Shown here one piece after another: positions 4,497-23,000 of a stretch of DNA of 64,000 bases (within the stretch, counting starts at the first letter, position 1; every line of letters begins with the position of its first letter). Position numbers and translations under genes: made by a program. Origin of the DNA: Candidatus Omnitrophota bacterium (GTDB lineage Bacteria > Omnitrophota > Gorgyraeia > Zapsychrales > JANLHA01); the NCBI GenBank assembly GCA_023247795.1, contig JAHFFT010000002.1, positions 31,760 to 95,759 on the forward strand. Direction: 5' to 3'. The notes below the pieces were generated by a model, which ran no database searches, had not been told where the DNA came from, and saw nothing but the letters and a program-made list of their open reading frames with translations.

Positions 4497-5153
4497 ATGG
4501 GTGAAATTGATTTATTAAAGAATTACCCCCAAACGAAAAGGAATTTGGAGCAGCGCCAAGAACGCAAGACGGCAGAAGACCATCGGATTGGGCGCGAATT
4601 TGCTAAGGATTATTTCGACGGTGATCGCCGTTATGGTTACGGGGGATATAAGTATCATCCGCGCTTTTGGCAGCCGGTTGTGCCGGATTTTCAAGCGCGC
4701 TACGGACTTTCGAAAGAAAGCTCAATTTTGGATGTTGGTTGTGCCAAGGGGTTTATGTTGCATGATTTTTGTGAATTGATCCCAGGGATCAAGGTTCAAG
4801 GTATTGACATCTCAGAATACGCCATCGGAAACGCGATCGATGACATGAAACCATATTTGCGAGTCGGGAACGCGAAAGAACTCCCCTTTGCCGATAAGAG
4901 TTTTGATCTTGTGATCTCGATCAATACCATACACAATTTGGCCGTTGAGGAATGCCGGTTGGCCCTCAAAGAGATCCAACGGGTTTCAAAAAGGGCCGCG
5001 TTCATTACGGTTGATGCCTATCGAAACGCGGAAGAGAAAAAGCGAATGGATATGTGGAACCTGACGGCATTAACGTATTTTTCTGTTGAAGGTTGGAAGA
5101 AATCATTCAAAGAAACGGGATATCGCGGGGACTACTATTGGTTTATTCCTTAA
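4497..5153 (+). CDS. class I SAM-dependent methyltransferase
   Basis: Motif I ILDVGCAKGFMLHDF and post-I motif DLVISINTIHNL. GTG at 4494 or ATG at 4497 as start. Confidence 0.65.
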   Translation: MGEIDLLKNYPQTKRNLEQRQERKTAEDHRIGREFAKDYFDGDRRYGYGGYKYHPRFWQPVVPDFQARYGLSKESSILDVGCAKGFMLHDFCELIPGIKVQGIDISEYAIGNAIDDMKPYLRVGNAKELPFADKSFDLVISINTIHNLAVEECRLALKEIQRVSKRAAFITVDAYRNAEEKKRMDMWNLTALTYFSVEGWKKSFKETGYRGDYYWFIP

Positions 5154-5199
5154 AGAATCTAGATTTATGATTATTAAGTTTTTTTGATGAGGACGTGGG

Positions 5200-6234: not shown

Positions 6235-6295
6235 TTGCTTTGTGATGGATGCGTTCAGACATTTTCTCGACTTATAAAAATTATTTTTTGTCACC

Positions 6296-8449
6296 ATGTT
6301 AATATCGAAATCAAAAGGTTTTTCACAAGAAGTTCGGAATATTATTTTGCTTTCCATTATCGTCATTATTGAGAGCATCCAGTTTATGATTGTTGTGGGT
6401 TGCGTATATTCCTATCTACCCAGCCCTACTCCAAAATACGATTTAGTTCTTCCTTACTATCATCAGCATCTTAGATTTGAAAGAAAAATTTTATTTTATC
6501 AGGTTTTTGTCACAGCGACTATTTTCCTGCAAGTTATCGTTCTGATTATTTTCCGAAATGCAATCTCAAGCGAACAGTTGGCTAGAAAATTGTCTAAATT
6601 TTTACTGTCTGAAATTTTTGTATTATTTTTAATTGCAATCATTTTGTTTAGAATGACAACTTTTGGACAATCGACAGTTCATACCTATTTATTTTATAGT
6701 ATCCTTATTTTTAGTGGACTCATGAAGTTTTTTTGGTCTTTCTTTTGGAAAATCATCAAATCGCTTTGGGAGAAGTCTGTATATGCTCGAATGAGGATTT
6801 GGGGCATACATTATTTTGATTTTGTTGTCCCACCAATTATTTTCTTGATGTTATATATTCCTAATACCGTTCAAGCGGCATCTGTTATTTTCCGTCAGGA
6901 GAAATTTCATCATATGGATGATTTTATGTACCCTGCATGGGCGTATCTTAAAGGCGGCCTGCCCAATATTGATGTGTATAGTGAATATGGAATGGGAGTT
7001 TCCATGGTGATAGCCGAATTTTCCAGGATGTTGGGAGGGTTGAATTATGAAAATTTTATTTCCGCGCTTGTTTGGTTGGCGTCTTTTTATTTTATCATTT
7101 ATTATTTTTTTCTGAGGGTGTGGTTTCGAGACGCGTTTTTAGCCACCTTAGGGGTGCTGTTAGCGTTTAAATGCGTTATGTTTGAAAAATTATCGGGAAC
7201 ATATGTTGGTGATGTTTTAATCTGGAGATATCCTTCATCGTCGGTCATTCGATATTTATTTGATGGAGCATTTTTTTTGTTGTTGTTACTTCATAATCGG
7301 TATCATAAGAGATGGCTTCTTATCTTTGCGCTTGTGATCAATGGTATGGCAATATTTTATTTTACAGATACCGGAATTTATCTTTTACTTGCAGCGTATT
7401 CATACATTTTTGTCATGGCATTGGCGTCTTTTCAGTGGGGATTAATAGCTAGAAATCTTGGTAAGACTTTGGTTTGGCTTTTTGGATGTTTATTGCTCCC
7501 TTGGGTCACTTTTATTTCCATATTATGGTTTTTTGTTAAGTCGCAGGTACTGATGAAGCCCTTTTGGTCGAATTTGGTGGAGAGAATAAGTTACATATCT
7601 TCTCTGGGGTTTTCGGAAACGCCCATTTATTATAGTTTAGAGCAAAGGTATTTTGCGGCTTTCTGGATTGCGTTGTTAATTCCATTGAGCTATGTGTTTT
7701 CATTGCTTATTATTGGAAGCTCGTATTTTACAAAAAATCTAAAATTAAAGGATGTTCTTATTATCCCCATCTGTATCTATGGTTTAGCTCTCTATACTCA
7801 TTATGTTAATAATCCCGCCCCTACTGTCTACTTTGGCACTTGTATCCCTTTTGTCTCTATTGTTTGTTATTGGCTTAACAAACTGTTGGCGCGAGAGAAG
7901 TATTGTCGAAGGAAAAAAATCCGTTTAGTTTTGGTTGTTTTGATAGTTGCTTCTTTAGTAACTAATCAAAGGTTTTGGATGTATCCTCATCTTTGGGGGT
8001 ATGCAAAAAGTTTATTTTTAGATGGGACCGTTGCTGCAAAATCGGATTATTCATTGGATGAAGAAGATATCAATCTTATTTCAAAATTGACAGATCCTAA
8101 AGAAAAAGTCTGCATCGTTAGTAGCCGCCCCCTGGCATTCCTTATACCAAGTAACCGAAGTCCGTTTTTTTATTATACATTGTTTTATCCGGATGATTTG
8201 AATGAACTGAATTATGGGGGGCCTAGAATTCTGACCATCAATCAACTTAAAATGACACTACAGCAATTGGAGAATTCAGGGCCCAAATATGTTTTTATTG
8301 AGAAAAGATACTTTATTTATTATTATGAGATGTATCTCAAGCATTATCAAACACCTGTTGAATTAATCGTTTTACTGAGTTATTTTCACAATCACTATAA
8401 AATTTATTCTCAAGGACAGTATTTATTGGCGTTGGAGCGAGTAAATTAA
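6296..8449 (+). CDS. large polytopic integral membrane protein (717 aa), candidate glycan polymerase/GT-C-like transferase
   Basis: More than 12 strongly hydrophobic segments rich in F/I/L/Y. C-terminal ~150 aa soluble domain. Embedded in the sugar-modification cluster. No recognisable catalytic motif. Confidence 0.4.
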   Translation: MLISKSKGFSQEVRNIILLSIIVIIESIQFMIVVGCVYSYLPSPTPKYDLVLPYYHQHLRFERKILFYQVFVTATIFLQVIVLIIFRNAISSEQLARKLSKFLLSEIFVLFLIAIILFRMTTFGQSTVHTYLFYSILIFSGLMKFFWSFFWKIIKSLWEKSVYARMRIWGIHYFDFVVPPIIFLMLYIPNTVQAASVIFRQEKFHHMDDFMYPAWAYLKGGLPNIDVYSEYGMGVSMVIAEFSRMLGGLNYENFISALVWLASFYFIIYYFFLRVWFRDAFLATLGVLLAFKCVMFEKLSGTYVGDVLIWRYPSSSVIRYLFDGAFFLLLLLHNRYHKRWLLIFALVINGMAIFYFTDTGIYLLLAAYSYIFVMALASFQWGLIARNLGKTLVWLFGCLLLPWVTFISILWFFVKSQVLMKPFWSNLVERISYISSLGFSETPIYYSLEQRYFAAFWIALLIPLSYVFSLLIIGSSYFTKNLKLKDVLIIPICIYGLALYTHYVNNPAPTVYFGTCIPFVSIVCYWLNKLLAREKYCRRKKIRLVLVVLIVASLVTNQRFWMYPHLWGYAKSLFLDGTVAAKSDYSLDEEDINLISKLTDPKEKVCIVSSRPLAFLIPSNRSPFFYYTLFYPDDLNELNYGGPRILTINQLKMTLQQLENSGPKYVFIEKRYFIYYYEMYLKHYQTPVELIVLLSYFHNHYKIYSQGQYLLALERVN

Positions 8450-8535
8450 TAAGTTACAGAAGAATTTAGGGTCAGATAGTTAAAATACTGCAAGCGGCTA
8501 ATTTCGAGTGTCAAAAAAGAAATGATGACAAGAAA

Positions 8536-9426
8536 ATGAGTGATGAACGGATCATAGTGATCGGAGCAGATAGTTTGATCGGAAATGCTTTAGCCGAAAC
8601 TTTAAAACGTTCGGGGAGGACGGTCTTAGAAACAACCCGGCGGCGGGAGTTGTTATCAGAAAACAGAATTTTTTTAGATCTTGAACAAGACATTTTTTCG
8701 GTGCGGTTTCCCAGCAACATTTCAGTTGCCTTTCTTTGTGCTGCTTGTGACTCACTGGAGTATTGTCATAAAGAACCTTTGAAGACAGCGAAAATAAACG
8801 TTGAGGCGATGGTTCGATTGGCAGAGAAATTGATTAAGGCAGGTGTGTTTGTGGTCTTTTTTTCTACTAATTTGGTTTATGATGGTGCTGTGCCTTGTGT
8901 TAAAGTTGATGCCCCGGTATCTGCGCAGACCGAACATGGACGTCAGAAGGCAGAAGCGGAAAGGCAAATGTTGCCTTTGGGAAATTTAATGGCAGTTCTT
9001 CGTCTCACAAAAATTTTTGGACCGGAAACACAGTTGTTGCAGGAATGGATTTTAGCGCTGAAAAGTAAAAAAAAGATCCAACCGTTTAGAGATAAAGTCA
9101 TTTCTCCGTTGTTATTATCGACAGCCGTTCAGGTTTCCTGTCTCATGATAGAAAAACGGTTATCGGGCATTGTTCAGATTTCCAGCGATCAAGACGTGAC
9201 TTATGCGCAAATCGCCTATCGTCTTGCTCATCGAATGAGGGTCCGTCAAGATTTGGTGCAACCCGTGTTGGCAAGTGAATCCGGATTGTTTATAGAACAT
9301 CTTCCGCGGAATACAACCTTTGATACAACGCGGTTGGTTAAGGAGCTGGGGATAAGGACCCCGAAGGTTTGGTCGGTCATTGACACGGTCATTGACCAGA
9401 ATTTGGATATTTTTAAAAGAAAATGA
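8536..9426 (+). CDS. NAD(P)-dependent sugar reductase/epimerase, RmlD (dTDP-4-dehydrorhamnose reductase)-like
   Basis: N-terminal IIVIGADSLIGNAL nucleotide-binding motif. ~296 aa, size and layout of the RmlD substrate-binding family. Confidence 0.5.
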   Translation: MSDERIIVIGADSLIGNALAETLKRSGRTVLETTRRRELLSENRIFLDLEQDIFSVRFPSNISVAFLCAACDSLEYCHKEPLKTAKINVEAMVRLAEKLIKAGVFVVFFSTNLVYDGAVPCVKVDAPVSAQTEHGRQKAEAERQMLPLGNLMAVLRLTKIFGPETQLLQEWILALKSKKKIQPFRDKVISPLLLSTAVQVSCLMIEKRLSGIVQISSDQDVTYAQIAYRLAHRMRVRQDLVQPVLASESGLFIEHLPRNTTFDTTRLVKELGIRTPKVWSVIDTVIDQNLDIFKRK

Positions 9427-9472
9427 TGCGCAGAGTTGTTGACGTCTTAGTTTTCAAATTGAGGAGAGATTT

Positions 9473-10237
9473 GTGAATGTATCGTTAGGGGAATTAGAGA
9501 AAAAAAGGCAAGACATTGAAAACCTGATTGACATCACGTTTTTTATTCCATGTCTTAATGAAGAGTATAGCATCATCGCGACCCTGGACAAGCTCGTAGC
9601 GGTCGCTGAGGAGTTGAAATTAACTTTCGAATTGTTGATTTATAATGATGGTTCTACGGACCATACCAAAATGTTGGTGGAGAATTATGCCAAGGAACAT
9701 CAGGGGCTGTTTTTGCGCCTCATCAATAATGAAAAACGCAAAGGATTAGGTTATAACTATATTGACGGTGCCTTTGTAGGATTCGGTAAATATTACATGA
9801 TGGTTTGTGGGGATAATTCAGAAACTGCCGATTCCCTGAGGGAAATCATCCAGCGAAGGGGAACCGCCGATATCGTGATCCCTTATTTTGGTGAGTTGGA
9901 CACGCGTAACGTTTTTCGGAGAAATTTGTCGAAGCTATTCACGTTCATTGTCAATTCCATTGGTGGACATCACATCAAATATTACAATGGCACTGTTTTG
10001 CACGAGCGATTCAATATCATGCGCTGGCATCCATCGAGCAGCGGATTTGCCTATCAAGCGGAGATGCTCGTGATCATGTTGGGTGAACGTAAGACCTATT
10101 GCGAAGTGCAAGTCGCTAACCGTGACCGCGAGAAGGGGATTTCGCGGGCGTTTCATTTGCAGAATATATTTTCAGTGACACATAGTCTATTTCAGATCCT
10201 CTGCCGTCGAATCCGACGGGAAATTTGGCCATTGTAA
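9473..10237 (+). CDS. GT2 family glycosyltransferase, DPM1/GtrB-like (paralog 3)
   Basis: FFIPCLNEE…FELLIYNDGSTDHT. GTG start preceded by a GAGGAGAG Shine-Dalgarno sequence. Confidence 0.65.
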   Translation: MNVSLGELEKKRQDIENLIDITFFIPCLNEEYSIIATLDKLVAVAEELKLTFELLIYNDGSTDHTKMLVENYAKEHQGLFLRLINNEKRKGLGYNYIDGAFVGFGKYYMMVCGDNSETADSLREIIQRRGTADIVIPYFGELDTRNVFRRNLSKLFTFIVNSIGGHHIKYYNGTVLHERFNIMRWHPSSSGFAYQAEMLVIMLGERKTYCEVQVANRDREKGISRAFHLQNIFSVTHSLFQILCRRIRREIWPL

Positions 10238-10243
10238 AATTTT

Positions 10244-10966
10244 ATGGATGCGATCTTAAAAAGTTCCGGGCTCGTTTTGCTCAATGCATCCCATTACAAC
10301 CATTGGCAGTATGAGCAATTCCGGCCTTACATCGGCGAAACGGTCTTGGAGATCGGGTGCGGAATTGGAAATTTGACTCAATATTTGCTGAAAGACGCTC
10401 AATTCCTTTTGTCTGTTGATACACGACCTGAGGCCATTGCTTTCATGCAAAAGCGATGTCTGCCGACCGCTAATTTTAAGGTGGAGTATCTTGATATCTT
10501 TCGTGAAGGGTTAAAAGAGTATTCCAAAAAATCATTTGATACGATTGTATTTTCAAATGTGCTTGAACATATTGAAGATGATGTCCAGGCGATGACAACG
10601 TGCCATGACATTTTGCGGCATACGGGGGGGAAACTTTTATTGCTCGTCCCGGCGCATAAACTTCTATACGGGACATTGGACGCTGAAGCCGGACATTTCC
10701 GTCGCTACTCTAAGCAAAGGATTATCAATCTGGCAAGGATAGCGCATTTTAAAATCCTAGATCTTTATGCTTTCAATATCAGTGGGGCGCTGGGATGGTT
10801 TCTAAATTATTGTGTTTTAAGACGGAAAGGCATCCATGATTCGTTGGACACCTTGCAGATGGATTTTTATGACCGTTATTTAGTTCCCCCCTGTCAATTC
10901 TTGGAAAAAAGAATAAGGCCGATAATAGGGATTTCTTATATTGCCATCTTAGAGGCAGAAAAATGA
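10244..10966 (+). CDS. class I SAM-dependent methyltransferase
   Basis: VLEIGCGIGNLTQYL motif I and DTIVFSNVLEHIED. Confidence 0.65.
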   Translation: MDAILKSSGLVLLNASHYNHWQYEQFRPYIGETVLEIGCGIGNLTQYLLKDAQFLLSVDTRPEAIAFMQKRCLPTANFKVEYLDIFREGLKEYSKKSFDTIVFSNVLEHIEDDVQAMTTCHDILRHTGGKLLLLVPAHKLLYGTLDAEAGHFRRYSKQRIINLARIAHFKILDLYAFNISGALGWFLNYCVLRRKGIHDSLDTLQMDFYDRYLVPPCQFLEKRIRPIIGISYIAILEAEK

Positions 10967-12327
10967 AAAAGATCATTATTGTTGGAGCCGGCTTGACGGG
11001 ATTGGCGTTTGCTTACGAGTGTTTATTGCGTAAATACGACGTTCTCATTGTGGAAAATTCAACGGAAGTGGGAGGGTTGGCCCGTTCGGTTAGCCACAAT
11101 GATTGTCGTCTGGATATTGGGGTCCATGTTCTATATTTGAAGGATAAGCAGGTTAGAGCGAAAGTTGCTGAAGTCATTCCTCAAGAAAAATGGCTGTCGG
11201 TACGCAGAAATGGAAAGCTGTACCTGAAAGGTCGGTATGTGGATTGGCCTCCGACATCACGTTCCTTGTTTCAACTCCCATTGGGGTTCAGTCTTCGGGT
11301 TTTTTTAGATCAGGTTTTAAAGAAAAAGAATGAGGAGAGTAGCCCAAATTTTGAAAGCGCGATTCTTGATCTCTATGGCCCAACGCTTTACCGTTCTTTT
11401 TTTCAGCCTTTGACGAGAAAGTTTTTTCAGACCGATCCAAAAAAATTACACGCGGATTGGGCGTTTTCCAGCTTACGTTCCGCGACTAAAATTGAGGATC
11501 AATCGTTCGCGCAGTCGAATCAATATTTGACCCAGACAACAGACGCCAAGTCCAAAAGGGATTTTAATATTTTTAAGTTTTTGTCGCAATCGCTTAAGAC
11601 CGACCGGGACAACGAGCCTTTTTATTATTTCAGCGATGGATTTGGCGCGTTGGTGGACGCGTACAAGGAGAAAATTTTACAGCTCGGTGGACGGATCATC
11701 TTGAACAAAAGTGTTACGGCGTTAAAAGTGGAGCAAAATAAGATAAAACAAGCCACCATTGATGGGCAGATTTATGAGATCGATGAGTTGGTATGGACTG
11801 GCAATCCTTTTGCTTTGTGCCGCCTTTTGAACATCGTTTGCCCACCGCTGGATTTTTTACATTCAAAATTTGTTTATGCTTTCTTGAAGAGGTGCCGTAA
11901 GGACCACCAAGTTTGCTATTATGCTGATTCTGACATTCCGTTTGTGCGCGCGACGATTCTCTCCAATCATTCCAAGGACATTATCCGCAACAAAAATGTC
12001 AGTGATGTGGTCTGTTTGGAGTACCCGTTTAAATCGCTGGAAGACCTGGCTGCAAATTCTACGGACATCAAACTTCAAGTCATTAAGGAATTGATCAAAT
12101 TAAAAATGATTGATCAAGATTTGGATGTGGAGAGTATTTTTGAAATTAAGGTGCCGTATTCTTATCCGATCTTGACGACGGATTATCGTGAGAAAACAGC
12201 TGAGCTGCAGCAGAGATTGAGTCAGTTTGACCATTTGATTGTGACGGGACGTCAGGCATCGTTCAATTATGAGAATTCCGATATCATCATCAAAAATGTT
12301 TTGCATCATCCCCTGTTTCGTTCATAA
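10963..12327 (+). CDS. FAD-dependent oxidoreductase (amine-oxidase/protoporphyrinogen-oxidase or UDP-galactopyranose-mutase-like fold)
   Basis: N-terminal dinucleotide-binding IIIVGAGLTGLAFAYE…VIVEN. Overlaps the previous gene by 4 nt (ATGA). Confidence 0.55.
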   Translation: MKKIIIVGAGLTGLAFAYECLLRKYDVLIVENSTEVGGLARSVSHNDCRLDIGVHVLYLKDKQVRAKVAEVIPQEKWLSVRRNGKLYLKGRYVDWPPTSRSLFQLPLGFSLRVFLDQVLKKKNEESSPNFESAILDLYGPTLYRSFFQPLTRKFFQTDPKKLHADWAFSSLRSATKIEDQSFAQSNQYLTQTTDAKSKRDFNIFKFLSQSLKTDRDNEPFYYFSDGFGALVDAYKEKILQLGGRIILNKSVTALKVEQNKIKQATIDGQIYEIDELVWTGNPFALCRLLNIVCPPLDFLHSKFVYAFLKRCRKDHQVCYYADSDIPFVRATILSNHSKDIIRNKNVSDVVCLEYPFKSLEDLAANSTDIKLQVIKELIKLKMIDQDLDVESIFEIKVPYSYPILTTDYREKTAELQQRLSQFDHLIVTGRQASFNYENSDIIIKNVLHHPLFRS

Positions 12328-12381
12328 CAATGGAATGCCAAGGTTTAGTTGCATGATTTAATCGGGGGAAGGGCAAGAAAG

Positions 12382-14016
12382 ATGTCAATCCAGGTGGAAA
12401 ATAAATTTAAAATCATTGGGATATTACTTTTTTTATTAGTTTTATTGATTAACCCTTTTGTTGTGCAGCAATTGACGGTGCAGTACTATATTTTTAGCTT
12501 GTTGTTTTTAGTTTTCGGTTTGGGTTGCTATTTTAATTTTTTTGGATTAGGTAAAAAAGTAATAGGTGTCTTTAAATATTTCGAGAGTCATAATGGTTGG
12601 TGGCTGCTGATGACGCAGGCCGCCATTTATATTTTTTATCTACTGTTGAATCAAGACCTCCTATCATATCAACTGCATGCTGGTTCTGGAGATGGGCTGA
12701 GTTACACTGGCTTTGATTTTTCTTCCTGGACTTCAGCCTTGGGTAGCATTCGTACGGTCGGGTTACCGGTGATCCTGAAGATTTATGGTTTAGTATTTCA
12801 AAATTTTCACTTTTGGCCGCATTTTCAGAGATTGTCTTACATTTTATCAGTATTTTTTCTTTATGGGTGTTTCTTGAGATTTGGGTTTAATAGGATATTT
12901 GCGTTGTTGGTTGTTTCTTTGTTACTTTGGGATAATGCGGACAACTACATATTCTGTGATGCTGGGACCGAAGTATTTGCCGCGGTTTTTTTACAATTAA
13001 CTATTGGTAGCATGCTTTTGGCTATTCGGAACTGGAACTGGAAAACCGCGGTATCGCTGGGAGTCAGTACATTTTTCCTTTATCAAATCCGTCCCAATTT
13101 CGCGTTCATACCAATCTTAGTTCCGTTATGGGCGGTTGGTATTTCAGTGATTAAAGAGACTTTTTTGTTGGCCCGGGCTCGCAATATTTTCTTTCGCTTT
13201 TCTCTGGTCACTATCTTGCCGCTCTTTTTGTTTTGTTTGCTTCGTCTTTTGGTTGTGGAGCAATTCGGTGTCGTATCCATGAGCGGTGGATGTCTCGCGG
13301 GGCACGCGGTTCATTATTTGAACGAAGAAAATATTCAGCATTTATCAGGGGACGTGAGAATGTTGGCCGATGAAATATTGGTCCGTAAACGCCAGCTAAC
13401 ACCGCCGAACAATCTTTCCCCATTTGAATGGATTACATTTGTTTCTGAGGAGGAGAAAGTTGAAATGGAGGCGAATGCCTTTGGTCCTAATTTGATGACT
13501 TCGTGGGATGTTGCTATAAGGCATCTTAGAGGAGTTGAACCATTTCCAGATCCAAAACAGAACATTGAACCGTGGAAACACACGTTGACATTATCGGGTT
13601 TTCACACTCAGTATTATAATTTTGAAACAGATCGTCTTTTGATGAGATTTTCAATAGCTGTTTTGACTCGCGAATGGAAAAGATATGTTCATTGGCTGGT
13701 GGGCGGCACTTTTTACGGCATGAGGGAGTATTGTAAATCACGATCATGGCTGCCTTGGTTAGGTTTTCTTGGGATTATTAAATTGACGTATTTTTTGTTG
13801 GCCAATGGTTGGGATGTCGTTCGGCTTAAGTGCTGGCATCGGGATATCGCGATTTTTTTGATGATTGCTGGAAGCATTTTCGTTTTTGGTTTTATTCCAA
13901 TAATCGTTTTTAATTATCCATTCGCGCGTCTTTTTGATTGGATCGGAATTTATTTGTTGCCGGCGGTTCTGTGTTTTACACTACCGCCTTTCTGGTTAAA
14001 GCGGGAAGCCGCGTAA
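12382..14016 (+). CDS. polytopic membrane protein, paralog 1 of a tandem pair (about 545-555 aa)
   Basis: Multiple TM segments. Central ~100 aa soluble loop (…LTPPNNLSPFEWITFVSE…). The ORF track starts at TTG 12349; ATG 12382 with an upstream GGGGAAGG is the likelier start. C-terminus LPPFWLKREAA is identical to the next gene. Confidence 0.5.
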   Translation: MSIQVENKFKIIGILLFLLVLLINPFVVQQLTVQYYIFSLLFLVFGLGCYFNFFGLGKKVIGVFKYFESHNGWWLLMTQAAIYIFYLLLNQDLLSYQLHAGSGDGLSYTGFDFSSWTSALGSIRTVGLPVILKIYGLVFQNFHFWPHFQRLSYILSVFFLYGCFLRFGFNRIFALLVVSLLLWDNADNYIFCDAGTEVFAAVFLQLTIGSMLLAIRNWNWKTAVSLGVSTFFLYQIRPNFAFIPILVPLWAVGISVIKETFLLARARNIFFRFSLVTILPLFLFCLLRLLVVEQFGVVSMSGGCLAGHAVHYLNEENIQHLSGDVRMLADEILVRKRQLTPPNNLSPFEWITFVSEEEKVEMEANAFGPNLMTSWDVAIRHLRGVEPFPDPKQNIEPWKHTLTLSGFHTQYYNFETDRLLMRFSIAVLTREWKRYVHWLVGGTFYGMREYCKSRSWLPWLGFLGIIKLTYFLLANGWDVVRLKCWHRDIAIFLMIAGSIFVFGFIPIIVFNYPFARLFDWIGIYLLPAVLCFTLPPFWLKREAA

Positions 14017-14023
14017 GCGTAAT

Positions 14024-15718
14024 TTGACGCCTTTCTTGTCGACAGACAATAGTTTTATTATACAGAAGGGTAGAGCAGTGGTAGAGCAAATTGAAAAAAG
14101 ATCTAGAATTATTGGGATTGCTTTTTTTTTATTAATTTTATTCATTAACCCTTTTGTTTTGCAACAATTGACACGGTATCCTTTTATTTATAGCCTGGTG
14201 TTTTCATTTTTAGGGATGTGTTATTATTTTCAAATTTTTTGGTTAGGCAAGAAAGTAACAGCCAGCTTCCAATATCTCAACAGCCAAAATTGTCTATGGT
14301 TGCTCGTCGTACAGTCAATCGTTTTTTTAGTCTTTCTCTCGATAAACAACTGTCTTAAGTGGGACCCAAATTATGCTTTTGGGGGAGATGCGCCAAGTTA
14401 TATCGAATTTGATTTTTCTTCTTGGGCTTCTATCTTGGGGAATCTTCGGACTTTCGGATTACCTTTAATTATTAAGAGTTACCAATTGGTATTTAAGGAT
14501 TTTCAACCTTGGCCGTATGTCCAGATGATTTCTTATGTTTTTTCTATTTTTTTTCTTTATTGGTGCCTTTTGAGTTTTGGTTTTAATAAAATATTTGCGT
14601 TGCTTATTGTTTCGTTTTTGCTTTGGGACAAAACGAATTTTCTTGCTTTTCGTTTTATCCGAACGGAATCTCTTTCTGCGACATTTCTACATCTCTCTGT
14701 TGGTAGCATGCTTTTGGCTATTCGGAACTGGAACTGGAAAACCGCGGTATCACTGGGAGTCAGCACATTTTTTCTCTATCAAATCCGTCCCAATCTTTCG
14801 TTCATAGCAATCTTAGTTCCGTTATGGGCGGTCGGCATTTCAGTGATTAAAGAGCATTTTCATTTGGCCCAGGCTCGCAACATTTTTTTTCGTTTTTCTC
14901 AAGTGACCATCTTGCCGCTCTTTTTGTTTTGCTTGCTGCGTCTTCTGGTTGTGGGGCAATTTGGTGTGGTGTCCATGAGTGGCTTATGTCTTGCTGGGCA
15001 TGCGGCACATTATTTAAATGAGAAGAGCATCCAATATTTATCAGGGGACGTGAGAACGTTGGCGGATGAAATATTGGTGCGTAAACGTCAGTTAACCCCT
15101 CCTAACAATCTTTCACCATTTGAATGGATTACATTTGTTTCGGAGGCGCAGAAGGTTGAAATGGAGGCCGACGCATTTGGCGCTGATTTGACGATCGCTT
15201 GGAACGTTGCAATTAAACAGATTAAGGGTGTTGAGCCATTTGATGATCCGAGACTGAAGATTGAAGCGTGGAAAACCAATTTGATGGAATTGGCGATTTT
15301 TCAATTTCATCAACATAATTTTAAAATAGATCGTCTTTTGATGAGATTTTCAATAGCAGTTTTGACTCGGGAATGGAAAAGATATGTTCATTGGCTGTTG
15401 GGTGGCAGTTTCTATGGTATGAGGATATATTTGGAATCGCGGTCGTTTTGGTTGATTTGTTTAGGATATTTAGTGATAGGGAAATTGATTTTTTTGCTGT
15501 TGTGCCAGAGATTGGATGGTGCTGAGCTTAAGCGTTGGAATCAGGATATCAAAATTTTCATGATGATGGCCGGCAGCCTTTACATTTTTGGTCTTATTCC
15601 TGTGGTGGTTTTTAATTATCCATTCCTGCGACTTCTTGATTTGATTGGTATTTATTTGTTGCCAGCGTTCTTGTGTTTTTCGTTGCCGCCTTTTTGGTTA
15701 AAGCGGGAAGCCGCGTAA
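14024..15718 (+). CDS. polytopic membrane protein, paralog 2 of the tandem pair (564 aa from the ORF track; true start uncertain)
   Basis: Collinear with 12382..14016. Stretches of nucleotide-level identity (e.g. LLAIRNWNWKTAVSLGVSTFFLYQIRPN) and the same C-terminus. Confidence 0.5.
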   Translation: MTPFLSTDNSFIIQKGRAVVEQIEKRSRIIGIAFFLLILFINPFVLQQLTRYPFIYSLVFSFLGMCYYFQIFWLGKKVTASFQYLNSQNCLWLLVVQSIVFLVFLSINNCLKWDPNYAFGGDAPSYIEFDFSSWASILGNLRTFGLPLIIKSYQLVFKDFQPWPYVQMISYVFSIFFLYWCLLSFGFNKIFALLIVSFLLWDKTNFLAFRFIRTESLSATFLHLSVGSMLLAIRNWNWKTAVSLGVSTFFLYQIRPNLSFIAILVPLWAVGISVIKEHFHLAQARNIFFRFSQVTILPLFLFCLLRLLVVGQFGVVSMSGLCLAGHAAHYLNEKSIQYLSGDVRTLADEILVRKRQLTPPNNLSPFEWITFVSEAQKVEMEADAFGADLTIAWNVAIKQIKGVEPFDDPRLKIEAWKTNLMELAIFQFHQHNFKIDRLLMRFSIAVLTREWKRYVHWLLGGSFYGMRIYLESRSFWLICLGYLVIGKLIFLLLCQRLDGAELKRWNQDIKIFMMMAGSLYIFGLIPVVVFNYPFLRLLDLIGIYLLPAFLCFSLPPFWLKREAA

Positions 15719-15748
15719 TTTGACGCATTTTCTGTCGGAGAGAAAAAA

Positions 15749-16267
15749 TTGATTTGTATTACGATCAGTTTAGCGTTTTTGATCCTATCAGTTTCATTTC
15801 ATTTGTTTTGGTGTAAATATTCAAAACGCCAGGGGCTGCATCTTACTTCCCTGATGGTCATTTATTTGTTGTTTTCTTCGTTGCTCGTAATCCTCACGGT
15901 GAGTAATATGGGAAAGGCCGTAGAGGAGCATCCATCCGATCTTTGGAACATGCCTTTGGGTTTGACAGCCATTCTTTTTTATCTTTTGCTTTTTTTTGTC
16001 TATTTTGTTTTGTTTACGACCACGGTCATTGATAGCCCATCCAATCACCTTACGGAGATGGTGAGAAATCAGGGGCCACTCACCTATCAACAGATATTGG
16101 ATAAAATGGGAGGGGACCATTTTATGATGTCAAGATTAAAAACTTTGGTGAGTGAGAAATATGTGGAAAATAACGGTTCGCGCTATCAGTTAACGGCAAG
16201 GGGTTGCTGGTTGGCAAGGATTTTGAACGCTTATCAACGGGTTTGCGGTCGGACTTGGGGAGGTTAA
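15749..16267 (+). CDS. small membrane protein with a C-terminal winged-helix-like soluble domain
   Basis: 3-4 TM segments followed by GPLTYQQILDKMG…LKTLVSEKYVENNGSRYQLTARG (helix-turn-wing pattern). TTG start in the track; an internal ATG is possible. Confidence 0.35.
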   Translation: MICITISLAFLILSVSFHLFWCKYSKRQGLHLTSLMVIYLLFSSLLVILTVSNMGKAVEEHPSDLWNMPLGLTAILFYLLLFFVYFVLFTTTVIDSPSNHLTEMVRNQGPLTYQQILDKMGGDHFMMSRLKTLVSEKYVENNGSRYQLTARGCWLARILNAYQRVCGRTWGG

Positions 16268-16272: not shown

Positions 16273-16812
16273 ATGACGCTTTATGATAGTGTTGTGATTG
16301 TACCGGTCGGCGCTGCCTTTTTTATTTTTCTCGTGATTCATATTGGTTTTTTTCGATTTTTTCCAAGCCAGGACGTCTTACGAAATCTTATTCAGGTTTT
16401 CTTGATCGGTGGTGCGGCTCATATCGCCGCCTTCATTTATTATGGTGGACAGCAAGGGATCATCGGATCAATGGGTCTTTTGAGTCTGCTTTTTTTATTT
16501 GTCGTCTCATTTCTTTTGTATTCTTGCCTGGCGTACATTTATACGATTTGCGTGTTTGGTCCATACGAATCATCGATCCGCATACGCATTGTTCGTGAAT
16601 TGTATCGACAATATCCTAAGCTGATAAGCTGGAAGGAACTTTCGAATCATTACAATATTGACATGATATTGCGGCGACGGCTGGATCGTCTGGTTCGGTC
16701 CCGGGATTTCATTTTCGATGGCAAGTTTTATACAGCAGTTCGAAAAGTGAACATGTTCTCAATTCTTAAGATCGTTGGGAAGAAGTTGAGTGAATTAAGT
16801 AACAATCAATAA
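16273..16812 (+). CDS. small membrane protein with a C-terminal winged-helix-like soluble domain (second copy)
   Basis: ATG at 16273 (MTLYDSVVIV…). 4 TM segments, then IRIVRELYRQYPKLISWKELSNHY…RLDRLVRSRDFIFDGKFYTAV. Stop overlaps the start of the next gene. Confidence 0.4.
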   Translation: MTLYDSVVIVPVGAAFFIFLVIHIGFFRFFPSQDVLRNLIQVFLIGGAAHIAAFIYYGGQQGIIGSMGLLSLLFLFVVSFLLYSCLAYIYTICVFGPYESSIRIRIVRELYRQYPKLISWKELSNHYNIDMILRRRLDRLVRSRDFIFDGKFYTAVRKVNMFSILKIVGKKLSELSNNQ

Positions 16813-19800
16813 TGATCAAGCTGAACATGGCGTCATTTTTCCGTAACATCCTCTTTCTGATCGTTGGATTAAGCTGTGGATTGACGTTTTTATGGTTGAC
16901 GGTTAATGGACGCATCGGTGGTCATGACTTTTTGGCCATTGCGGTTGATCGATATTTTTTTCTTAATCAAACGATCTCTGGTCATGAATTCCCACAATGG
17001 ATCCCTTATGTAGTCCATGGTGCCCCAACGGCATATGCCAATGGGGCATATGGAGGACGTCTTCAAGATGTTCTGCTTTTGACCTCCTCTTTCCTTCCTA
17101 AAATCAACTTTCTGACCTATCTCAACTTAGGTTTTCTTATCGATGAGTTGCTATTAGCAGTGGGCATGTGGTTGTGGGCGTCAAGATTATTCAAACATAA
17201 GACCACAATGGCTTTTGTATCGGGTACAGTGCTCGCGTCTACGATATGGCTTTATGCGCCCGCTTTTAATCTGCAGATTTATTTTTCCATTCCCTTGGTT
17301 CTTTATTTTTTCCATCAATTTTTAGATCAAGGGAAATGGCGTTATTTTTTATTTGGGATGAATATGTTGGCCATTCAAACCATAGGGGGCGTTCCCTACT
17401 TTTTTCCAGCAACTAGTCTTGTTGTATTTTTATACGCGGTATTTTATTGTTTGTTCAATGTCAAGGACACATTGGTCAAACTGCGTCGAATCACGTTTTC
17501 CGTCCCCGCTGTCATAGTGTGCCTTTTGGTCATATTGTCATTCGTGATCGTTTTTAGCTTTTATCATTTTTCATTTGGCGAAATTTTTTTTAATAGAGGA
17601 GCTGGTCATGGGGAGATCGGACTTGATCAATTTTTGTCGTATGGGGGCTGTTTCGGATTCACGAAATGGACAGAGTTGATTCTGGGTTTTTCTTCGCATG
17701 TGGATACTGTTCTATATTCAGGAATTTCAACCGTCATTTTGGTGATGTTTTATGTATTTACAGGTGTTAAAAAGGAGAGTCTGCCTATTTTTGGCACTTT
17801 TATTTTTATTTTTTTCTTCAGTGCCGGTGGAATATTGGCAAAGATCTGTTATTATGCATGGCCGCTGATGTCATATTTCCGCCACGTTGCCTACATAGCC
17901 ATGATCGCTAAGGTTTTTTTAATTATGCTGGCGGGGTTCGGCTTGGACCGGTTGATCGATATGAAGCGCCAACCCAATGCCGGAACGAGCGCCAAGGCGC
18001 CTTTGACCTTGTGTATTGTCTTCACGATATTAATCGGCCTGTCCCTTTTCTATGCGAGTTCAAATTTTGATTTGATGGCAAAATCAACAGGTGTCATCGG
18101 CAAGTCAATATTAAAGCAATATTTATCATCAGCTAATTTCTATGATTTTGATGTTGATGGCCTGCGCGATGGGCAATTTGATGAAGGGGTGTCGTTTATC
18201 GTTTATCGGCTTATCTATACTTCGCTGATTGCCGTTATCATCGCTGGATTATTGGGCCTTTTATTCATGAAAGATGTCGCAAAGAGGAAAATATTTCTCA
18301 CGGTGTTTGTCCTTTTTCATTTTTATGATGTCTTTGGGTATAAGTATCTCGAGATGGGGTTAAGGACGGTGAAGCTGAAACAGGAAACCTTGGATCTTTT
18401 TAAATTTCAGGACATTCCGTTCAATCGCCAGCGGCGAATGGACTTGGATAAAAATAATCTAAGATTACAAGAGTTTTTTAATGTCCTTTTGACGGATCGA
18501 TTGATGTATGCCATGGATAACACCTTTCTTTTTGCCGACCAGGTAAATGGGGCATTTCGCACCGATTATTGGCCGAAGTCGTTCAATGATTATATCCGCG
18601 CGCATTGGCGGCTGCCTTTGGATGAGCATGATATCCCCAAGAAAAGTAACAATAGGCAAGGGAACGTGGTGTTCCCACTTCAGAAAGAATCGGCTAAGAA
18701 AATCTCCGGAATCACAAAGGAAAAAATACAGTTTTTTTCAAAGGCGTACGCGCTATCGAGTCGAGTGCAGACCGCTGAGGTGTTGGCGGACCCTCAATAT
18801 CAGGGGGACACGATTTTTCTTGATATGGATCAGGACGCTGAAAAGTCTTACCAAGGAGTTGTCGAGAGTTTCAATAAAGATGAATTGAACAGAAATGATC
18901 GGGTGACTTTGGGGTATGAGGTGCTGGAGTTTGACGCGAATAATTTGAAGTTATCGGTGAATAATAACAGCGGGCAAAAGGTGTGGCTGCATTACAGTGA
19001 CAGTTGGCATCCGTTTTGGAAGGTGACGATCAATGGGAAGAAGGGAGAGATCTACAAATCGAACTTGGCTTATAAGGCGGTGCTGTTGGAGCAGGGGGCG
19101 AATGTTGTATGGTTCCGGTTCCACTCATCGTGGATGGTATTTTTGCATTATGTGGTAGGGATCAATTCCTTATTGTGGATCATTGCGTTGTTTGGGTTTA
19201 TATTCTTGATTTTAAGACAAAAGGATGATGCATCTGAATTAAGAGGAAAGGAATGGGGATGTGTGATTTTGATTGTGGGGGCTTTAGTGGGTGCGCATCT
19301 TATGTTGGCAGGGCAGATACCGAAAGTGATGCACAAGGAGGACAAAGACGGGAAGAGCAATATGGATTATTTGGAACGGCTAGCGAAGAAAGAGGAAATG
19401 TTTGATGAAGGGAAGGTCAAAGGGGGAGTGAAAGTGCTGAACCGGTTAGCGCAGGTCAAAAATTATCGATCGATCGCGTTAGAGGATCTGGGATTTTGTT
19501 ATTACGCGAGCCATGATTGGGACAAGGCGTTGGAATATTACGCACGATCGATCAAAGAGGAGTCCTTTTTTTATGCGGCCCATTATGATGCCGCGTTGGT
19601 TTATTTACAACGCAAGGAGTATGGTGCTGCGATGGAACAATTGAAAGCGGGTGTGATGAAATTGCAAACATTTCGTTCCCTTGTGCAAAATCTGGTGGAT
19701 GGCGCGGCAAAGAATGGGGTAGGTGATTTTGTCAATAACGGGAGCGCACTTGTTGAAGAAATGAATCAGGATGAAGAGAAAATGTATTTATTGGTAAATG

Positions 19801-19913
19801 GGCAGCTGCCATCCGTTGAGGACTTGAATCCGCATTTTTTTGGAAAAGATCAACATGAATTCTATAAGCAACTGCTTGATCTTAATGATAAGTATCATTT
19901 TTGGCGATCTTAG
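16812..19913 (+). CDS. giant polytopic membrane protein, paralog A (1033 aa); candidate GT-C-fold glycosyltransferase with a C-terminal TPR-like domain
   Basis: ~13 N-terminal TM segments. First loop NGRIGGHDF…HEFPQW. ~270-aa soluble middle domain. Two further TM segments. C-terminal TPR-like repeats (YYARSIKEE…AAHYDAALVYLQRKEYGAAMEQL). Confidence 0.55.
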   Translation: MIKLNMASFFRNILFLIVGLSCGLTFLWLTVNGRIGGHDFLAIAVDRYFFLNQTISGHEFPQWIPYVVHGAPTAYANGAYGGRLQDVLLLTSSFLPKINFLTYLNLGFLIDELLLAVGMWLWASRLFKHKTTMAFVSGTVLASTIWLYAPAFNLQIYFSIPLVLYFFHQFLDQGKWRYFLFGMNMLAIQTIGGVPYFFPATSLVVFLYAVFYCLFNVKDTLVKLRRITFSVPAVIVCLLVILSFVIVFSFYHFSFGEIFFNRGAGHGEIGLDQFLSYGGCFGFTKWTELILGFSSHVDTVLYSGISTVILVMFYVFTGVKKESLPIFGTFIFIFFFSAGGILAKICYYAWPLMSYFRHVAYIAMIAKVFLIMLAGFGLDRLIDMKRQPNAGTSAKAPLTLCIVFTILIGLSLFYASSNFDLMAKSTGVIGKSILKQYLSSANFYDFDVDGLRDGQFDEGVSFIVYRLIYTSLIAVIIAGLLGLLFMKDVAKRKIFLTVFVLFHFYDVFGYKYLEMGLRTVKLKQETLDLFKFQDIPFNRQRRMDLDKNNLRLQEFFNVLLTDRLMYAMDNTFLFADQVNGAFRTDYWPKSFNDYIRAHWRLPLDEHDIPKKSNNRQGNVVFPLQKESAKKISGITKEKIQFFSKAYALSSRVQTAEVLADPQYQGDTIFLDMDQDAEKSYQGVVESFNKDELNRNDRVTLGYEVLEFDANNLKLSVNNNSGQKVWLHYSDSWHPFWKVTINGKKGEIYKSNLAYKAVLLEQGANVVWFRFHSSWMVFLHYVVGINSLLWIIALFGFIFLILRQKDDASELRGKEWGCVILIVGALVGAHLMLAGQIPKVMHKEDKDGKSNMDYLERLAKKEEMFDEGKVKGGVKVLNRLAQVKNYRSIALEDLGFCYYASHDWDKALEYYARSIKEESFFYAAHYDAALVYLQRKEYGAAMEQLKAGVMKLQTFRSLVQNLVDGAAKNGVGDFVNNGSALVEEMNQDEEKMYLLVNGQLPSVEDLNPHFFGKDQHEFYKQLLDLNDKYHFWRS

Positions 19914-20067: not shown

Positions 20068-23000
20068 ATGAAGAATAGCCGTTTAAGCAATTTCAAATCA
20101 TCATTTTTTCGCAATATCCTTTTTTTGGTCATTGGATTAAGCTGTGGATGCACGTTTTTATGGTTGACGGTAAATGGACGCATTGGTGGTCATGATTTTT
20201 TGGACGTTGCGATTCATCGATATTTTTTTCTTAATCAAGCGATTTCTGCTCATGAATTCCCACAATGGATCCCTTATGTAGTCCATGGTGCCCCAACGGC
20301 ATATTCCAATGCGACGTATGATGGGCGACTTCAAGATGTTTTGCTCTTGATCTCCTCTTTCCTTCCTAAAATCAACTTTTTGACCTATCTCAACTTAGGC
20401 TTTCTTATCGATGAGTTGCTATTAGCAGTGGGCATGTGGTTATGGGCATCACGGGTGTTTCAGCATAAATTAACAATGGCCTTTGTATCGGGGACAGTGC
20501 TTGCGTCTTCGGTATGGGTTTATGCGCCCGGCTTTGATCTGCAGATTTATTGCGCCATTCCTTTGGTTCTTTATTTTTTTCATCAATTTTTAGATCAAGG
20601 GAAATGGCGATATTTTTTATTTGGGATGAATCTGTTGGCCATCCAAGCCATAGGGGAGCCTCCCTATTTTTTCCCGGCAACCACACTAGCGGTATTTTTA
20701 TATTTGGTATTTTACTGTTTGTTCAATATCAAGGACACATTGGTCAAACTGCGTCGAATCACGTTTCCCGTCTCTGCGGTCATAGCGTGTCTTCTGGTTA
20801 TATTGTCATTCGTGGTCGTTTATGGTTTTTTTCATTTCTCATTTGATCAAATTACGATCAATCGAGGAAGCAACCCTGAAGGGAAGATTGGCATTGAGCA
20901 ATTTTTATCGTATGAGGTCTCTTTCGGATTCACTAAATGGACAGAGTTGATTCTGGGCTTTTCTTCGCAGGTGGATATTATGCTTTATTCAGGAATTTCA
21001 ACCGTCATTTTGGTTATGTTCTATGTATTCACAGGTATTAAAAAGGAGAGTCTGCCAGTTTTGGGCACTTTTATTTTCCTCTTTTTCTTAAGTACCGGCG
21101 GCGGAATATTGGCAAAGATCTGTTATTATGTGTGGCCGTTGATGTCATATTTTCGCCAACTTGCGTACATAGCCATGATCGCTAAGGTTTTTTTGATTAT
21201 GTTAGCGGGGTTTGGCTTGGACCGGTTGATCGATGTGAAGCGTCAACCCAATGCCGGAATAAAGGTTAAGGGACCTTTGACCTTGTGTATTGTCTTCACG
21301 ATATTAATCGGCCTGTTCCTTTTCTTTGCGAGTTCCAATTTTGATTTGATGGTGCAATCAATGCGGCTCATCGGCAGGGAAATGTTAAAACCATATCTAC
21401 TGTCGGTTAATTTTTATGATTCTATCGTTGCTAGTGCGCGAGACGGTCAGTTTGAAGAAGGGGTCCCGTTGATAGCTTATCGGTTTATCGGTACTTCGCT
21501 GATTGCCGTTATCATCGCTGGATTGATGTGCGCTTTATTCATAAAAGATGTCGCGAAAAGGAAATTTTTTCTGACGGTGTTTGTCCTTTTTCATTTTTAT
21601 GATGTCTTTGGGTACAAGTATCTCGAGATGGGGTCAAGGTCGGTGAAGCTGAGGCAGCAGACCTTGGATTTTTTTAAGTTTCAAGATATGCCGTTCAATC
21701 GTCAGCGGCGAATGGATTTTGATAAAGATAATCCCAGATTCAATAACCTTTTTCCATATCGAGTGATGTATGCCATGGTGACCACCTTTTTTTTTACCGA
21801 TCAGGTGAATGGGGTATTTCGTACTGATTACTGGCCGAAGCCGTTCAATGATTACATTCGCGCGCATTGGCGGCTGCCTTTGGATGAGCATGATATCCCG
21901 AAATATGGATATGTCGATGACGAACGGCTTATTGTCCAGTATCCGCTGGATAAGGAATCGGCCCAAAAGATCTCCGGAATCACGAAAGAGAAAATACAGT
22001 TTTTTTCAAAGGCGTACGCGTTATCAAGTCGAGATCAGACCGCTGAGGTGTTGGCGGACCCTCAATATCAGGGGGACACGATTTTTCTTGATATGAATCA
22101 GGGCGCTGAAAAGTCTTACCAAGGAGTTGTCGAGGGTTTCAATAAAGATGAATTGAGCAGGAATGATCGGGTGACTTTGGGGTATGAGGTGCTGGAGTTT
22201 GACGCGAATAATTTGAAGTTATCGGTGAATAATGACAGCGGGCATCAGGTCTGGCTGCATTACAGTGACAGTTGGCATCCGCTTTGGAAGGTGACGATCA
22301 ATGGGAAAAAGGGGGATATCTACAAGTCGAATTTAGCATATAAGGCGGTGCTGTTAGAGCAGGGAGCTAATGTCGTATGGTTTCGGTTCCACTCATCGTG
22401 GATGGTATTTTTGCATTATGTGGTAGGGATCAACTCGTTGTTGTGGATCATCGCGTTGTTTGTGTTTATCGTCATGATTTTAAAACAAAAGCAAAAGAAT
22501 AATGCTTTTGAGTTGACCGGGCGGGAATGGGGGAAGACTTTTCTTATAGTGAGTATTTTAGTGGTCACGCATCTTATGTTAGCTAGACCCATTTCCAGAA
22601 TGGTGTATCCTACAAAAGACGGTAAGAACAATATGGATTATTTGGAACGATTGGCGAAGAGCGAGGATGTGTATGATGAACGAAAGGTTAAAGGGGGCAT
22701 CAAGGCGTTGACCCAACTAGCGCATGTGAAACCCTATCGAACCATCGCGTGGGAGGACCTAGGATTTTGTTATTACGCGAGCCATGATTGGGACAAGGCG
22801 TTGGAATATTACGCGCGATCGATCAAAGAGGAGCCGTTTTTCTACGCGGCGCATTACGACGCCGCATTGGTTTATTTACAACGCAAGGAGTATGGTGCTG
22901 CGATGGAACAATTGAAAGCGAGTGTGATGAAATTACAAAAATTCCGTTCCTTTGTGCAGAATCTGGTGGATAACGCGGCAAAGAATGGGACGGGTGATTT

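Follow-up and report, generated by a model that had tools for sequence, protein, structure and literature searches.

Old tandem duplicates with patchy gene conversion in Candidatus Omnitrophota: a probable new family of GT-C-type membrane glycosyltransferases

In a window of 64,000 nucleotides (nt) from a Candidatus Omnitrophota bacterium (assembly GCA_023247795.1, contig JAHFFT010000002.1, positions 31,760 to 95,759), two adjacent genes, here referred to as A and B, encode related polytopic membrane proteins. We suggest, with a probability of roughly 60%, that A and B are old tandem duplicates belonging to an undescribed family of polytopic GT-C-type glycosyltransferases with a role in extracytoplasmic glycosylation, and that the two genes have undergone patchy gene conversion. 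In the best reading of the data, they represent a new GT-C-like family within a Gtr-type extracytoplasmic glycosylation module. The evolutionary part of this model is directly visible in the alignments. Saturated synonymous sites in residues 49-208 show that A and B are old tandem duplicates, and non-reciprocal RecA-type recombination between the direct repeats is shown to have re-homogenized patches, most clearly in residues ~205-265. All coordinates below count from the first nucleotide of the window, unless another contig is named, and all features in the window are on the forward strand.

Paralog A (12382..14016) encodes a predicted GT-C-like membrane protein of 544 amino acids (aa) with 12 transmembrane helices (TM), starts with ATG downstream of the ribosome-binding site GGGGAAGGG, and corresponds to P0001 (100% identical). 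Paralog B (14078..15718), which corresponds to P0004, encodes 546 aa with the same architecture and starts with GTG downstream of GAAGGG. These starts were set by the ribosome-binding sites together with public gene calls, and they lie within maximal open reading frames (ORFs) of 12349-14016 and 14024-15718. The original prediction, which was made from the letters of the window alone, had given 555 and 564 aa, which describe the maximal ORFs and not the proteins, and its coordinates for B were off by 1 nt. Its central observation, i.e. two tandem membrane paralogs that diverge at their N-termini, is borne out. Alignment of the two same-strand genes, which are separated by a spacer of 61 nt, confirmed a mosaic identity with a strongly diverged N-terminal third; over their full length, the proteins are 65% identical and 77% similar, and the DNA is 74.6% identical. 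Both ORFs are intact and encode every residue that is invariant in the family. The window contains no additional copy of A or B, whether complete or partial, that might have acted as a silent donor cassette, and scans of the A/B region for terminators and promoters gave a number of sites that is not above that in shuffled sequence.

A sliding comparison with the orthologs P0002 (L001), P0003 (L007), P0006 (L004) and P0007 (L005) from other metagenomes revealed at least three regimes of A-B divergence along the gene (pS and pN denote the proportions of synonymous and non-synonymous differences, respectively). In residues 49-208 (12526..13005 in A), which comprise core TM1, the first periplasmic loop and TM2-4, A and B are 63.1% identical in DNA and have diverged further from each other than either has from the groundwater ortholog P0002 (72.5% and 71.0% for A and B, respectively). 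In this third of the gene, A-B pS is 0.57-0.73, a synonymous saturation comparable to the between-species level, informative quartet sites do not favor the pairing (A,B) (11 vs 15 vs 22) and the neighbor-joining bootstrap for (A,B) is 1%. By contrast, A and B are 89.4% identical in residues 209-290, where identity to P0002 is 67.1% and 67.5% and the bootstrap is 100%; for residues 209-268, A-B pS is 0.18-0.28, while A or B compared with the orthologs gives 0.57-0.79. In residues 291-388, A-B identity is 79.6% and identity to P0002 is 80.6% and 83.0%, with an A-B pS of 0.54-0.63 and a pN of 0.03-0.09. Finally, the C-terminal third has an intermediate A-B affinity with (A,B) bootstraps of 58-71%.

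With regard to the timing of the duplication relative to speciation, the quartet sites in residues 49-208 are star-like. The loss in both paralogs of the Glu residue in a GDEPSY motif hints that the duplication may have arisen in this lineage, near the split from P0002/P0003. The motif reads GDGLSY in A (12691-12708) and GDAPSY in B (14387-14404); 12 of 13 other close relatives have kept the Glu, and across the wider family this position varies. Tandem duplication recurs in the family, because a 5880-nt contig of JGI metagenome 3300050046 carries an independent pair in a different lineage, i.e. P0014 (1365-2804) and P0016 (2783-4267), which are 58% identical and overlap by ~20 nt.

One conversion tract is robust and covers roughly 12994..13160 in A and 14690..14856 in B, with 89.8% identity. 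It contains the longest exact A-B repeat of 52 nt (13004-13055), and in 13005-13080 compared with 14701-14776, 72 of 76 nt are identical (94.7%). In a Sawyer-type run test, 30 consecutive polymorphic sites (13005-13054) were without an A-B difference (p<1e-4). Similarly, quartet sites supporting (A,B) account for 25/30 in residues 201-289 versus 4/30 in residues 69-164 (p about 3e-4 each). For the 3' half, older homogenization is probable. The original prediction listed several near-identical central stretches as conversion tracts. Of these, 13005-13080 stands, while 13130-13300 is 83.6% identical only; in other words, conversion holds for the robust tract and for a paralog-matching patch in a second assembly described below, and was overstated elsewhere. 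In particular, the conserved LTPPNN... loop and most of the similarity in 13130-13450 are explained by purifying selection, with saturated synonymous sites and equally similar orthologs. The similarity in residues 291-388 is the result of purifying selection and not of conversion, because pS is 0.54-0.63 and nucleotide identity to the ortholog equals or exceeds A-B identity. The LTPPNNLSPFEW region is likewise kept by purifying selection and not by conversion.

Could the mosaic have formed without any conversion? In this scenario, the duplication is recent, the N-terminal third is fast-evolving or a foreign allele in B, and the centre is held by selection. Consistently, the central region is functionally constrained throughout the family, the B branch is longer in residues 49-208, and the absence of the GDEPSY Glu from both A and B hints at a common ancestry after the P0002/P0003 split. 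Some of our own results also speak against conversion. The permutation test for a synonymous-only scan is marginal (p 0.01-0.06), and a second candidate tract at 13629-13658 was downgraded, as A and an ortholog are identical there, too. Moreover, a test on identical-amino-acid codons alone is not significant, and the claim of conversion, therefore, rests on the other tests. However, constraint alone does not produce nucleotide identity, because the constrained residues 291-388 have saturated pS. Also, the drop in A-B pS from residues 49-208 to residues 209-268 occurs where the orthologs remain at high pS, the three or more levels of A-B divergence would require several events anyway, and the patch in the second assembly is direct evidence of transfer. 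We consider a history without conversion quite unlikely.

This patch is present in assembly GCA_023247435.1, in which contig JAHFGM010000048.1 (L012) equals window positions 4874-14871 with 12 mismatches over 10 kb, encodes a 99.8% identical copy of A (P0165) and stops inside gene B. Four of the 12 mismatches (14795, 14797, 14798 and 14807) are the A bases at the homologous positions 13099, 13101, 13102 and 13111. B of this assembly is identical to A over 56 nt (14777..14832) with B-specific bases on both sides, giving a patch of A-type bases of 13-56 nt. The patch changes RPNLSFIAIL to the A-type RPNFAFIPIL and adjoins the invariant R237-P238. Because the Ala of FAF is specific to A among the relatives, the direction of transfer was from A to B. 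With moderate confidence, we suggest that gene conversion between A and B is probably still going on in the natural population. Of the 12 mismatches, seven lie close together at the start of the L012 contig, within its first 43 nt (L012 10-43, window 4883-4916), in a gene for a 219-aa methyltransferase; this cluster may be contig-end noise or another recombination patch.

The patch sits 64-77 nt from the contig end, which counts against its being genuine. The smallest k-mer normally used by short-read assemblers is 21. Because the shared run upstream of the patch is 18 nt only and, thus, shorter than this k-mer, switching in the assembly graph is argued against. More generally, the tandem pair or its mosaic could be an artefact, either of a strain chimera or of a region that was collapsed or duplicated, since the source is a metagenome assembly and the contig of GCA_023247435.1 breaks within B near the high-identity tract. 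However, three assemblies have the A-B arrangement in common, i.e. the window, a 26-kb contig of ENA ERZ27297570 and GCA_023247435.1, and a repeat that is 74.6% identical with a longest exact run of 52 nt is so short and diverged that it is unlikely to be collapsed or duplicated. The intact ORFs with all invariant residues and the independent P0014/P0016 pair also argue against an artefact, which we consider very unlikely indeed.

The duplicated unit includes sequence downstream of the coding regions, as originally predicted. The A and B proteins share the C-terminus LPPFWLKREAA, and the final 27 nt of the coding sequences match at 26 positions. The 3' end and flank of A (14011..14041) contains the tandem GCGTAA GCGTAA (14011-14022), the first copy of which is the last Ala codon and the stop, followed by TTTGACGCCTTTCTTGTCG, and is homologous to the flank of B. 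In B, the corresponding segment (15713..15737) is GCGTAATTTGACGCATTTTCTGTCG, is 88% identical to 14017-14041 and marks the 3' limit of the duplicated unit. The homologous flanks have the form TTTGACGC(C/A)TTT..CTGTCG and extend for about 22-25 nt, after which homology ends. The string gcgtaatttgacgc had been reported to follow both stop codons; this is the case in A, while in B it takes in the final Ala codon together with the stop. The conserved 3' flanks of both paralogs (14024-14053 and 15720-15749) start with TTGACG, and 18 nt further on there is an A/T-rich hexamer. These sites score as weak sigma-70-like promoters before B and before the next gene, and their count is not above that expected from shuffled sequence.

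Partial gene conversion, or concerted evolution, is known from duplicated bacterial genes, including tufA/tufB and tandem paralogs for surface proteins or glycosyltransferases. A and B resemble these systems in being direct repeats in one replicon, in their patchy tracts, which measure tens to ~150 nt and have a reduced synonymous divergence, in their segment-wise phylogenetic discordance, and in the polymorphic patch between near-identical strains. They differ from them in that conversion is limited to the middle and 3' part of the genes. Because the part with the presumed active-site loop stays diverged, we suggest that A and B are kept functionally distinct and are not fully homogenized. 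The divergence pattern fits sub- or neofunctionalization, with conversion tolerated only where A and B need not differ. Conversion as such is an ordinary evolutionary process.

What kind of proteins are A and B? Neither matched any Pfam or NCBIfam family, and no source has a name for the family beyond “hypothetical protein”. While a word-indexed homolog search identified 16 relatives only, and a second such search with a 65-sequence profile returned the close subfamily only, unnamed in every source, a profile run exhaustively against 1.84 billion cluster representatives identified 700 at E<=1e-3 and 208 at E<=1e-30. Most members of the family are 450-500 aa long, without the two helices with which A and B begin. 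Residues D104, Y108, R124, P129, P146, R237, P238, P248, P280, R288 and R516 are at least 90% conserved in 139 members, and D104 is invariant across 65 sequences. This Asp, encoded by 12691..12693 in A (GDGLSY) and by 14387-14389 in B (GDAPSY), lies just after core TM1 and is the candidate catalytic base.

AlphaFold2 modelled full-length A with a predicted local distance difference test (pLDDT) score of 81, and residues 60-544, using a 65-sequence alignment, with a pLDDT of 94.2 and a predicted template modelling score (pTM) of 0.93. The model has 10 core TM helices and two additional N-terminal helices that are present in the A/B subfamily, in agreement with hydropathy. The first loop (residues 95-144) has three short helices, and an all-helical domain of ~160 aa (residues 293-455, 13258..13746 in A) is inserted between TM7 and TM8. 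The original prediction had proposed a soluble loop of ~100 aa with a conserved segment between TM bundles; loop and segment are there, with LTPPNNLSPFEWITFVSE identical in A and B at residues 339-356 (13396-13449 in A) inside the helical domain, and the loop is longer than proposed. Putative cytoplasmic short loops contain 12.5 Lys and Arg residues compared to 3.1 in periplasmic ones; because of this positive-inside bias, D104, R237 and R516 as well as the helical domain are predicted to be periplasmic.

In both Foldseek runs, every match with a probability of at least 0.85 was a GT-C protein, i.e. STT3A/B, yeast Stt3, Pmt2 (probability 1.00), ALG3 and Pmt4. The predicted proteins have traits of the GT-C fold in that they are polytopic with a conserved N-terminal TM module and have a long first extracytoplasmic loop with a conserved Asp after TM1. 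In several solved GT-C structures, the catalytic residue is proposed to be an Asp right after TM1, and in GT136 the key residues are D31, E34 and Y35 (PMC11127046), which the D104-x3-Y108 arrangement resembles. With moderate confidence, we suggest that A and B have a GT-C fold and, as inferred from the model and the invariant residues, a periplasmic active site around D104. Compared to the classical GT-C enzymes (STT3/PglB, Pmt1-Pmt2/Pmt4, ALG3/9/12, ArnT and AftA), which are the sole high-probability structural matches, A and B share at least 10 TM helices, a first extracytoplasmic loop that opens with an acidic residue and has short juxtamembrane helices, and a predicted active face on the periplasmic (luminal) side. 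They differ in their variable C-terminal module and their helical periplasmic domain, for which the classical enzymes have no counterpart.

Several observations weigh against a glycosyltransferase assignment. The Foldseek E-values are weak (0.08-2) with TM-scores of about 0.3, and family profiles built from 15- and 55-member alignments found no match among the sequences of all PDB chains. Searches of A, B and 55 relatives against Pfam and NCBIfam down to E<=5 returned nothing usable, and a single one of the 55 relatives weakly matches PMT_2 (E 3e-4). In other words, A and B do not belong by sequence to the described GT-C families (including Pfam PMT, PMT_2, Glyco_transf_22, YfhO and GtrII, as well as PDB sequences). 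These weak structural scores, the lack of a sequence link to any glycosyltransferase family and the lack of a recognized flippase in the module could indicate that A and B are not enzymes but a transporter, flippase or scaffold for a lipid-linked sugar made by the neighboring GT2 enzyme, with their likeness to GT-C reflecting a generic helical bundle. This is distinctly improbable, as transporters (ClC, pyrophosphatase and SLC15) reached Foldseek probabilities of 0.16 at most, while all high-probability matches are GT-C; furthermore, the invariant Asp/Tyr/Arg cluster on the periplasmic face is as in GT-C active sites, and a conserved periplasmic domain of 160 aa is not expected of a simple flippase. 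Until a stronger structure comparison or biochemistry is at hand, we suggest classifying this unannotated and undescribed family as a new one of the known GT-C kind.

The genes upstream of A inform about the possible donor. In the window, A is preceded by genes for an RmlD-like short-chain dehydrogenase/reductase (SDR; 8536..9426), a GT2 glycosyltransferase of 254 aa (9473..10237), an S-adenosylmethionine (SAM)-dependent methyltransferase of 240 aa (10244..10966) and, directly upstream, a flavoprotein of 454 aa (10963..12327). In profile searches of the PDB, the best solved relatives of the GT2 protein are ArnC (8.6e-20, residues 20-241), GtrB (1.2e-14) and an archaeal Dol-P-Man synthase (DPMS; 4.9e-14), and all of these first three families are polyprenyl-phosphate sugar synthases. 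For the flavoprotein, the top 27 matches are all UDP-galactopyranose mutases (UGMs; best 2.9e-28).

We compared this arrangement with seven other loci of the close subfamily, i.e. L001 from a groundwater metagenome, L004 from a Candidatus Omnitrophota metagenome-assembled genome (MAG), L005 from a MAG labelled Planctomycetales, L007, L009, the short P0005 contig and the P0014/P0016 contig. Within the limits of the contigs, six of the seven have one copy of the membrane gene, the exception being the tandem pair P0014/P0016. In each of the six single-copy loci, the gene just before the membrane gene encodes a UGM-like flavoprotein (454-488 aa); the gene before P0014 has a product of 441 aa, which is likened to it by position only. 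The 240-aa methyltransferase precedes the flavoprotein in five of the other loci, the GT2 gene directly precedes the methyltransferase gene in L001, L004 and L009, and in L005 a 367-aa ORF separates the methyltransferase gene from an upstream 260-aa ORF that aligns with the GT2 proteins. The contigs of P0005 and L007 are too short to show the GT2 gene; L007 ends 356 nt past the membrane gene, and a partial downstream ORF there was left out of the comparison. The SDR is conserved upstream of the GT2 gene in L001, L004 and L005. More distant members (L010 and L011) lie in heptose-like NDP-sugar loci with a 240-aa GT2 protein and an amine-oxidase-type flavoprotein. By contrast, the very distant member L006 (Pseudodesulfovibrio) lies outside any glycan locus, which weighs against the proposed fold and function; because this context is without glycan genes, the module is not extendable to the whole family.

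The conserved ArnC/GtrB/DPMS-like GT2 protein suggests, with moderate confidence, that A and B use a polyprenyl-phosphate-linked sugar produced by this neighbor. In the model that we propose, the UGM-like flavoenzyme would generate a nucleotide-furanose, which is the most speculative step, and, on the cytoplasmic side, the GT2 protein would attach the sugar to polyprenyl phosphate. This lipid-linked sugar could be modified by the methyltransferase and the SDR and would then be flipped by some flippase. On the periplasmic side, A and B would each transfer the sugar to a cell-surface glycan by means of the invariant Asp104 that follows the first core TM helix. If solved GT-C enzymes are a guide, the donor/acceptor groove may be formed by the first periplasmic loop together with TM1-4. 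As A and B differ most in this region, they plausibly have different acceptor sites or linkages or form a heterodimer; both ideas are speculative, as is the proposal that the sugar is a (methylated) furanose. It counts against the model that the donor, the acceptor and the part played by the UGM-like enzyme are purely inferred. A further point against it is that neither of the two small membrane proteins encoded downstream of B (15749-16267 and 16273-16812) has a match to GtrA or any other significant Pfam match, in a scan for flippases that did not cover the rest of the window exhaustively.

A different extracytoplasmic activity would be that of Wzy-type polymerases or WaaL-type ligases acting on polyprenyl-diphosphate-linked oligosaccharides, with the two copies serving two linkages or acceptors. 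Like these proteins, A and B are polytopic with a large periplasmic loop and conserved periplasmic Arg residues (R124, R237, R288 and R516), and they are encoded in a glycan biosynthesis locus. In addition, the best Foldseek matches include STT3, which uses a diphosphate-linked oligosaccharide, and Wzy polymerases are now also considered GT-C-related (PMC12502699). However, none of 55 members matches Wzy_C, O-ag_pol_Wzy or EpsG in Pfam at E<=5, and there are no WaaL, Wzy or SEDS structures among the top 50 Foldseek matches. Moreover, the conserved GT2 protein, which resembles polyprenyl-phosphate-monosaccharide synthases, would be superfluous for a polymerase or ligase, and an invariant Asp after the first core TM helix is a classical GT-C feature (PMC11127046). 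We regard a polymerase or ligase function, which the original prediction had put forward, as unlikely; the structural matches are to GT-C proteins of the oligosaccharyltransferase, PMT and ALG types and not to WaaL or Wzy.

The proposed GT-C module is overall similar to the Gtr-type three-component systems, which consist of the undecaprenyl-phosphate-glucose synthase GtrB, the flippase GtrA and a serotype-specific GT-C enzyme (PMC11127046), and to the GT136 pentofuranose systems (Kelly et al. 2024; PMC11127046). As in these systems, a GT2 gene, here with ArnC, GtrB and DPMS as the nearest solved relatives of its product, adjoins a gene for a polytopic GT-C-like protein, and the module is part of a surface-glycan locus that includes a furanose-related enzyme. 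Also, A and B have an Asp followed by a Tyr four residues on after the first core TM, comparable to D31, E34 and Y35 of GT136. However, there are clear differences. A and B lack sequence similarity to GtrC-type proteins, GT136 or any CAZy or Pfam GT-C family, no GtrA or MATE flippase was recognized at the A/B locus in the non-exhaustive scan of the window, and the 254-aa GT2 protein is without C-terminal TM helices. Furthermore, the UGM-like flavoprotein and the methyltransferase are fixed components of the A/B module, and the periplasmic domain is a helical insert of 160 aa between TM7 and TM8 and not a C-terminal carbohydrate-binding module.

GT-C paralogs are known to form heterodimers, as in the case of EmbA-EmbB of the mycobacterial embCAB cluster and Pmt1-Pmt2 (PDB 6p25). 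A and B resemble these pairs as GT-C-type paralogs with diverged catalytic-loop regions and, in the case of embCAB, in their chromosomal adjacency; they differ from them in that an A/B dimer is speculation and that the gene is single-copy in most relatives. Taken further, the fixed association of a new CAZy-type GT-C family with a UGM-like mutase, an ArnC/GtrB-like synthase and a methyltransferase could define a new route for the extracytoplasmic decoration of a surface glycan with a (methylated) hexofuranose carried by polyprenyl phosphate, with the A/B pair acting as a heterodimer, as for EmbA/EmbB, or providing recombination-driven variation of glycan decoration in the population. We offer this extended scenario tentatively and as a rather improbable one.

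Downstream of B, three tandem genes (16812-19913, 20068-23181 and 23333-26485) encode giant paralogs of 1033, 1037 and 1050 aa with 75-80% protein identity, which have a polytopic N-terminal part and C-terminal TPR repeats but no other Pfam match. Their mutual similarity exceeds that between A and B, and they may undergo their own concerted evolution. The suggestion that A and B partner with these giants is not supported by conservation, because there are no giant homologs within up to 10 kb of flank at any related locus; a comparison of the A/B family with the three giants using hhalign gave no relationship. The conserved partners are, instead, the upstream SDR, GT2, methyltransferase and UGM-like genes.

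The two small proteins between B and the giants have N-terminal TM helices and a C-terminal soluble part, and the first has faint matches to winged-helix domains. They are not paralogs of each other. The pair is conserved and adjacent in the groundwater relative (L001 3115-4177, 30-32% identity) and could belong to the same glycan system. On the other side of the locus, a 717-aa protein without a Pfam match (6296-8449) is encoded between a gene similar to alcohol dehydrogenases and that of the RmlD-like SDR; it is not homologous to a 665-aa protein in L001 (5117-7114), also without a Pfam match, which is encoded on the other side of the SDR, between SDR and GT2. In L004, a 730-aa protein encoded 2.4 kb downstream of the family member (14069-16261) has a C-terminus that matches the GT-C-type Pfam family YfhO. 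In total, the locus in the window contains three small GT2 genes (1811-2512, 3776-4480 and 9473-10237, encoding 233, 234 and 254 aa), among which that for the 254-aa protein alone belongs to the conserved module, and several SAM-dependent methyltransferase genes.

Finding GT-C families by sequence is difficult, and new families are still being founded, e.g. GT136 in 2024. At about 700 clusters at 50% identity, the family of A and B is a sizeable unannotated family without a Pfam, NCBIfam or PDB relative, and this candidate GT-C family stems from barely studied uncultivated bacteria, with its nearest relatives in MAGs labelled Omnitrophota and Planctomycetales. Together, the confident structural model, the invariant residues predicted to be periplasmic and the conserved module lead to a testable prediction, i.e. 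that these proteins would function in polyprenyl-phosphate-sugar-dependent glycosylation, possibly of a furanose. At the same time, purifying selection and gene conversion can be cleanly separated within a single gene in the A/B pair, and a comparison of two near-identical assemblies makes a conversion patch visible as a polymorphism.

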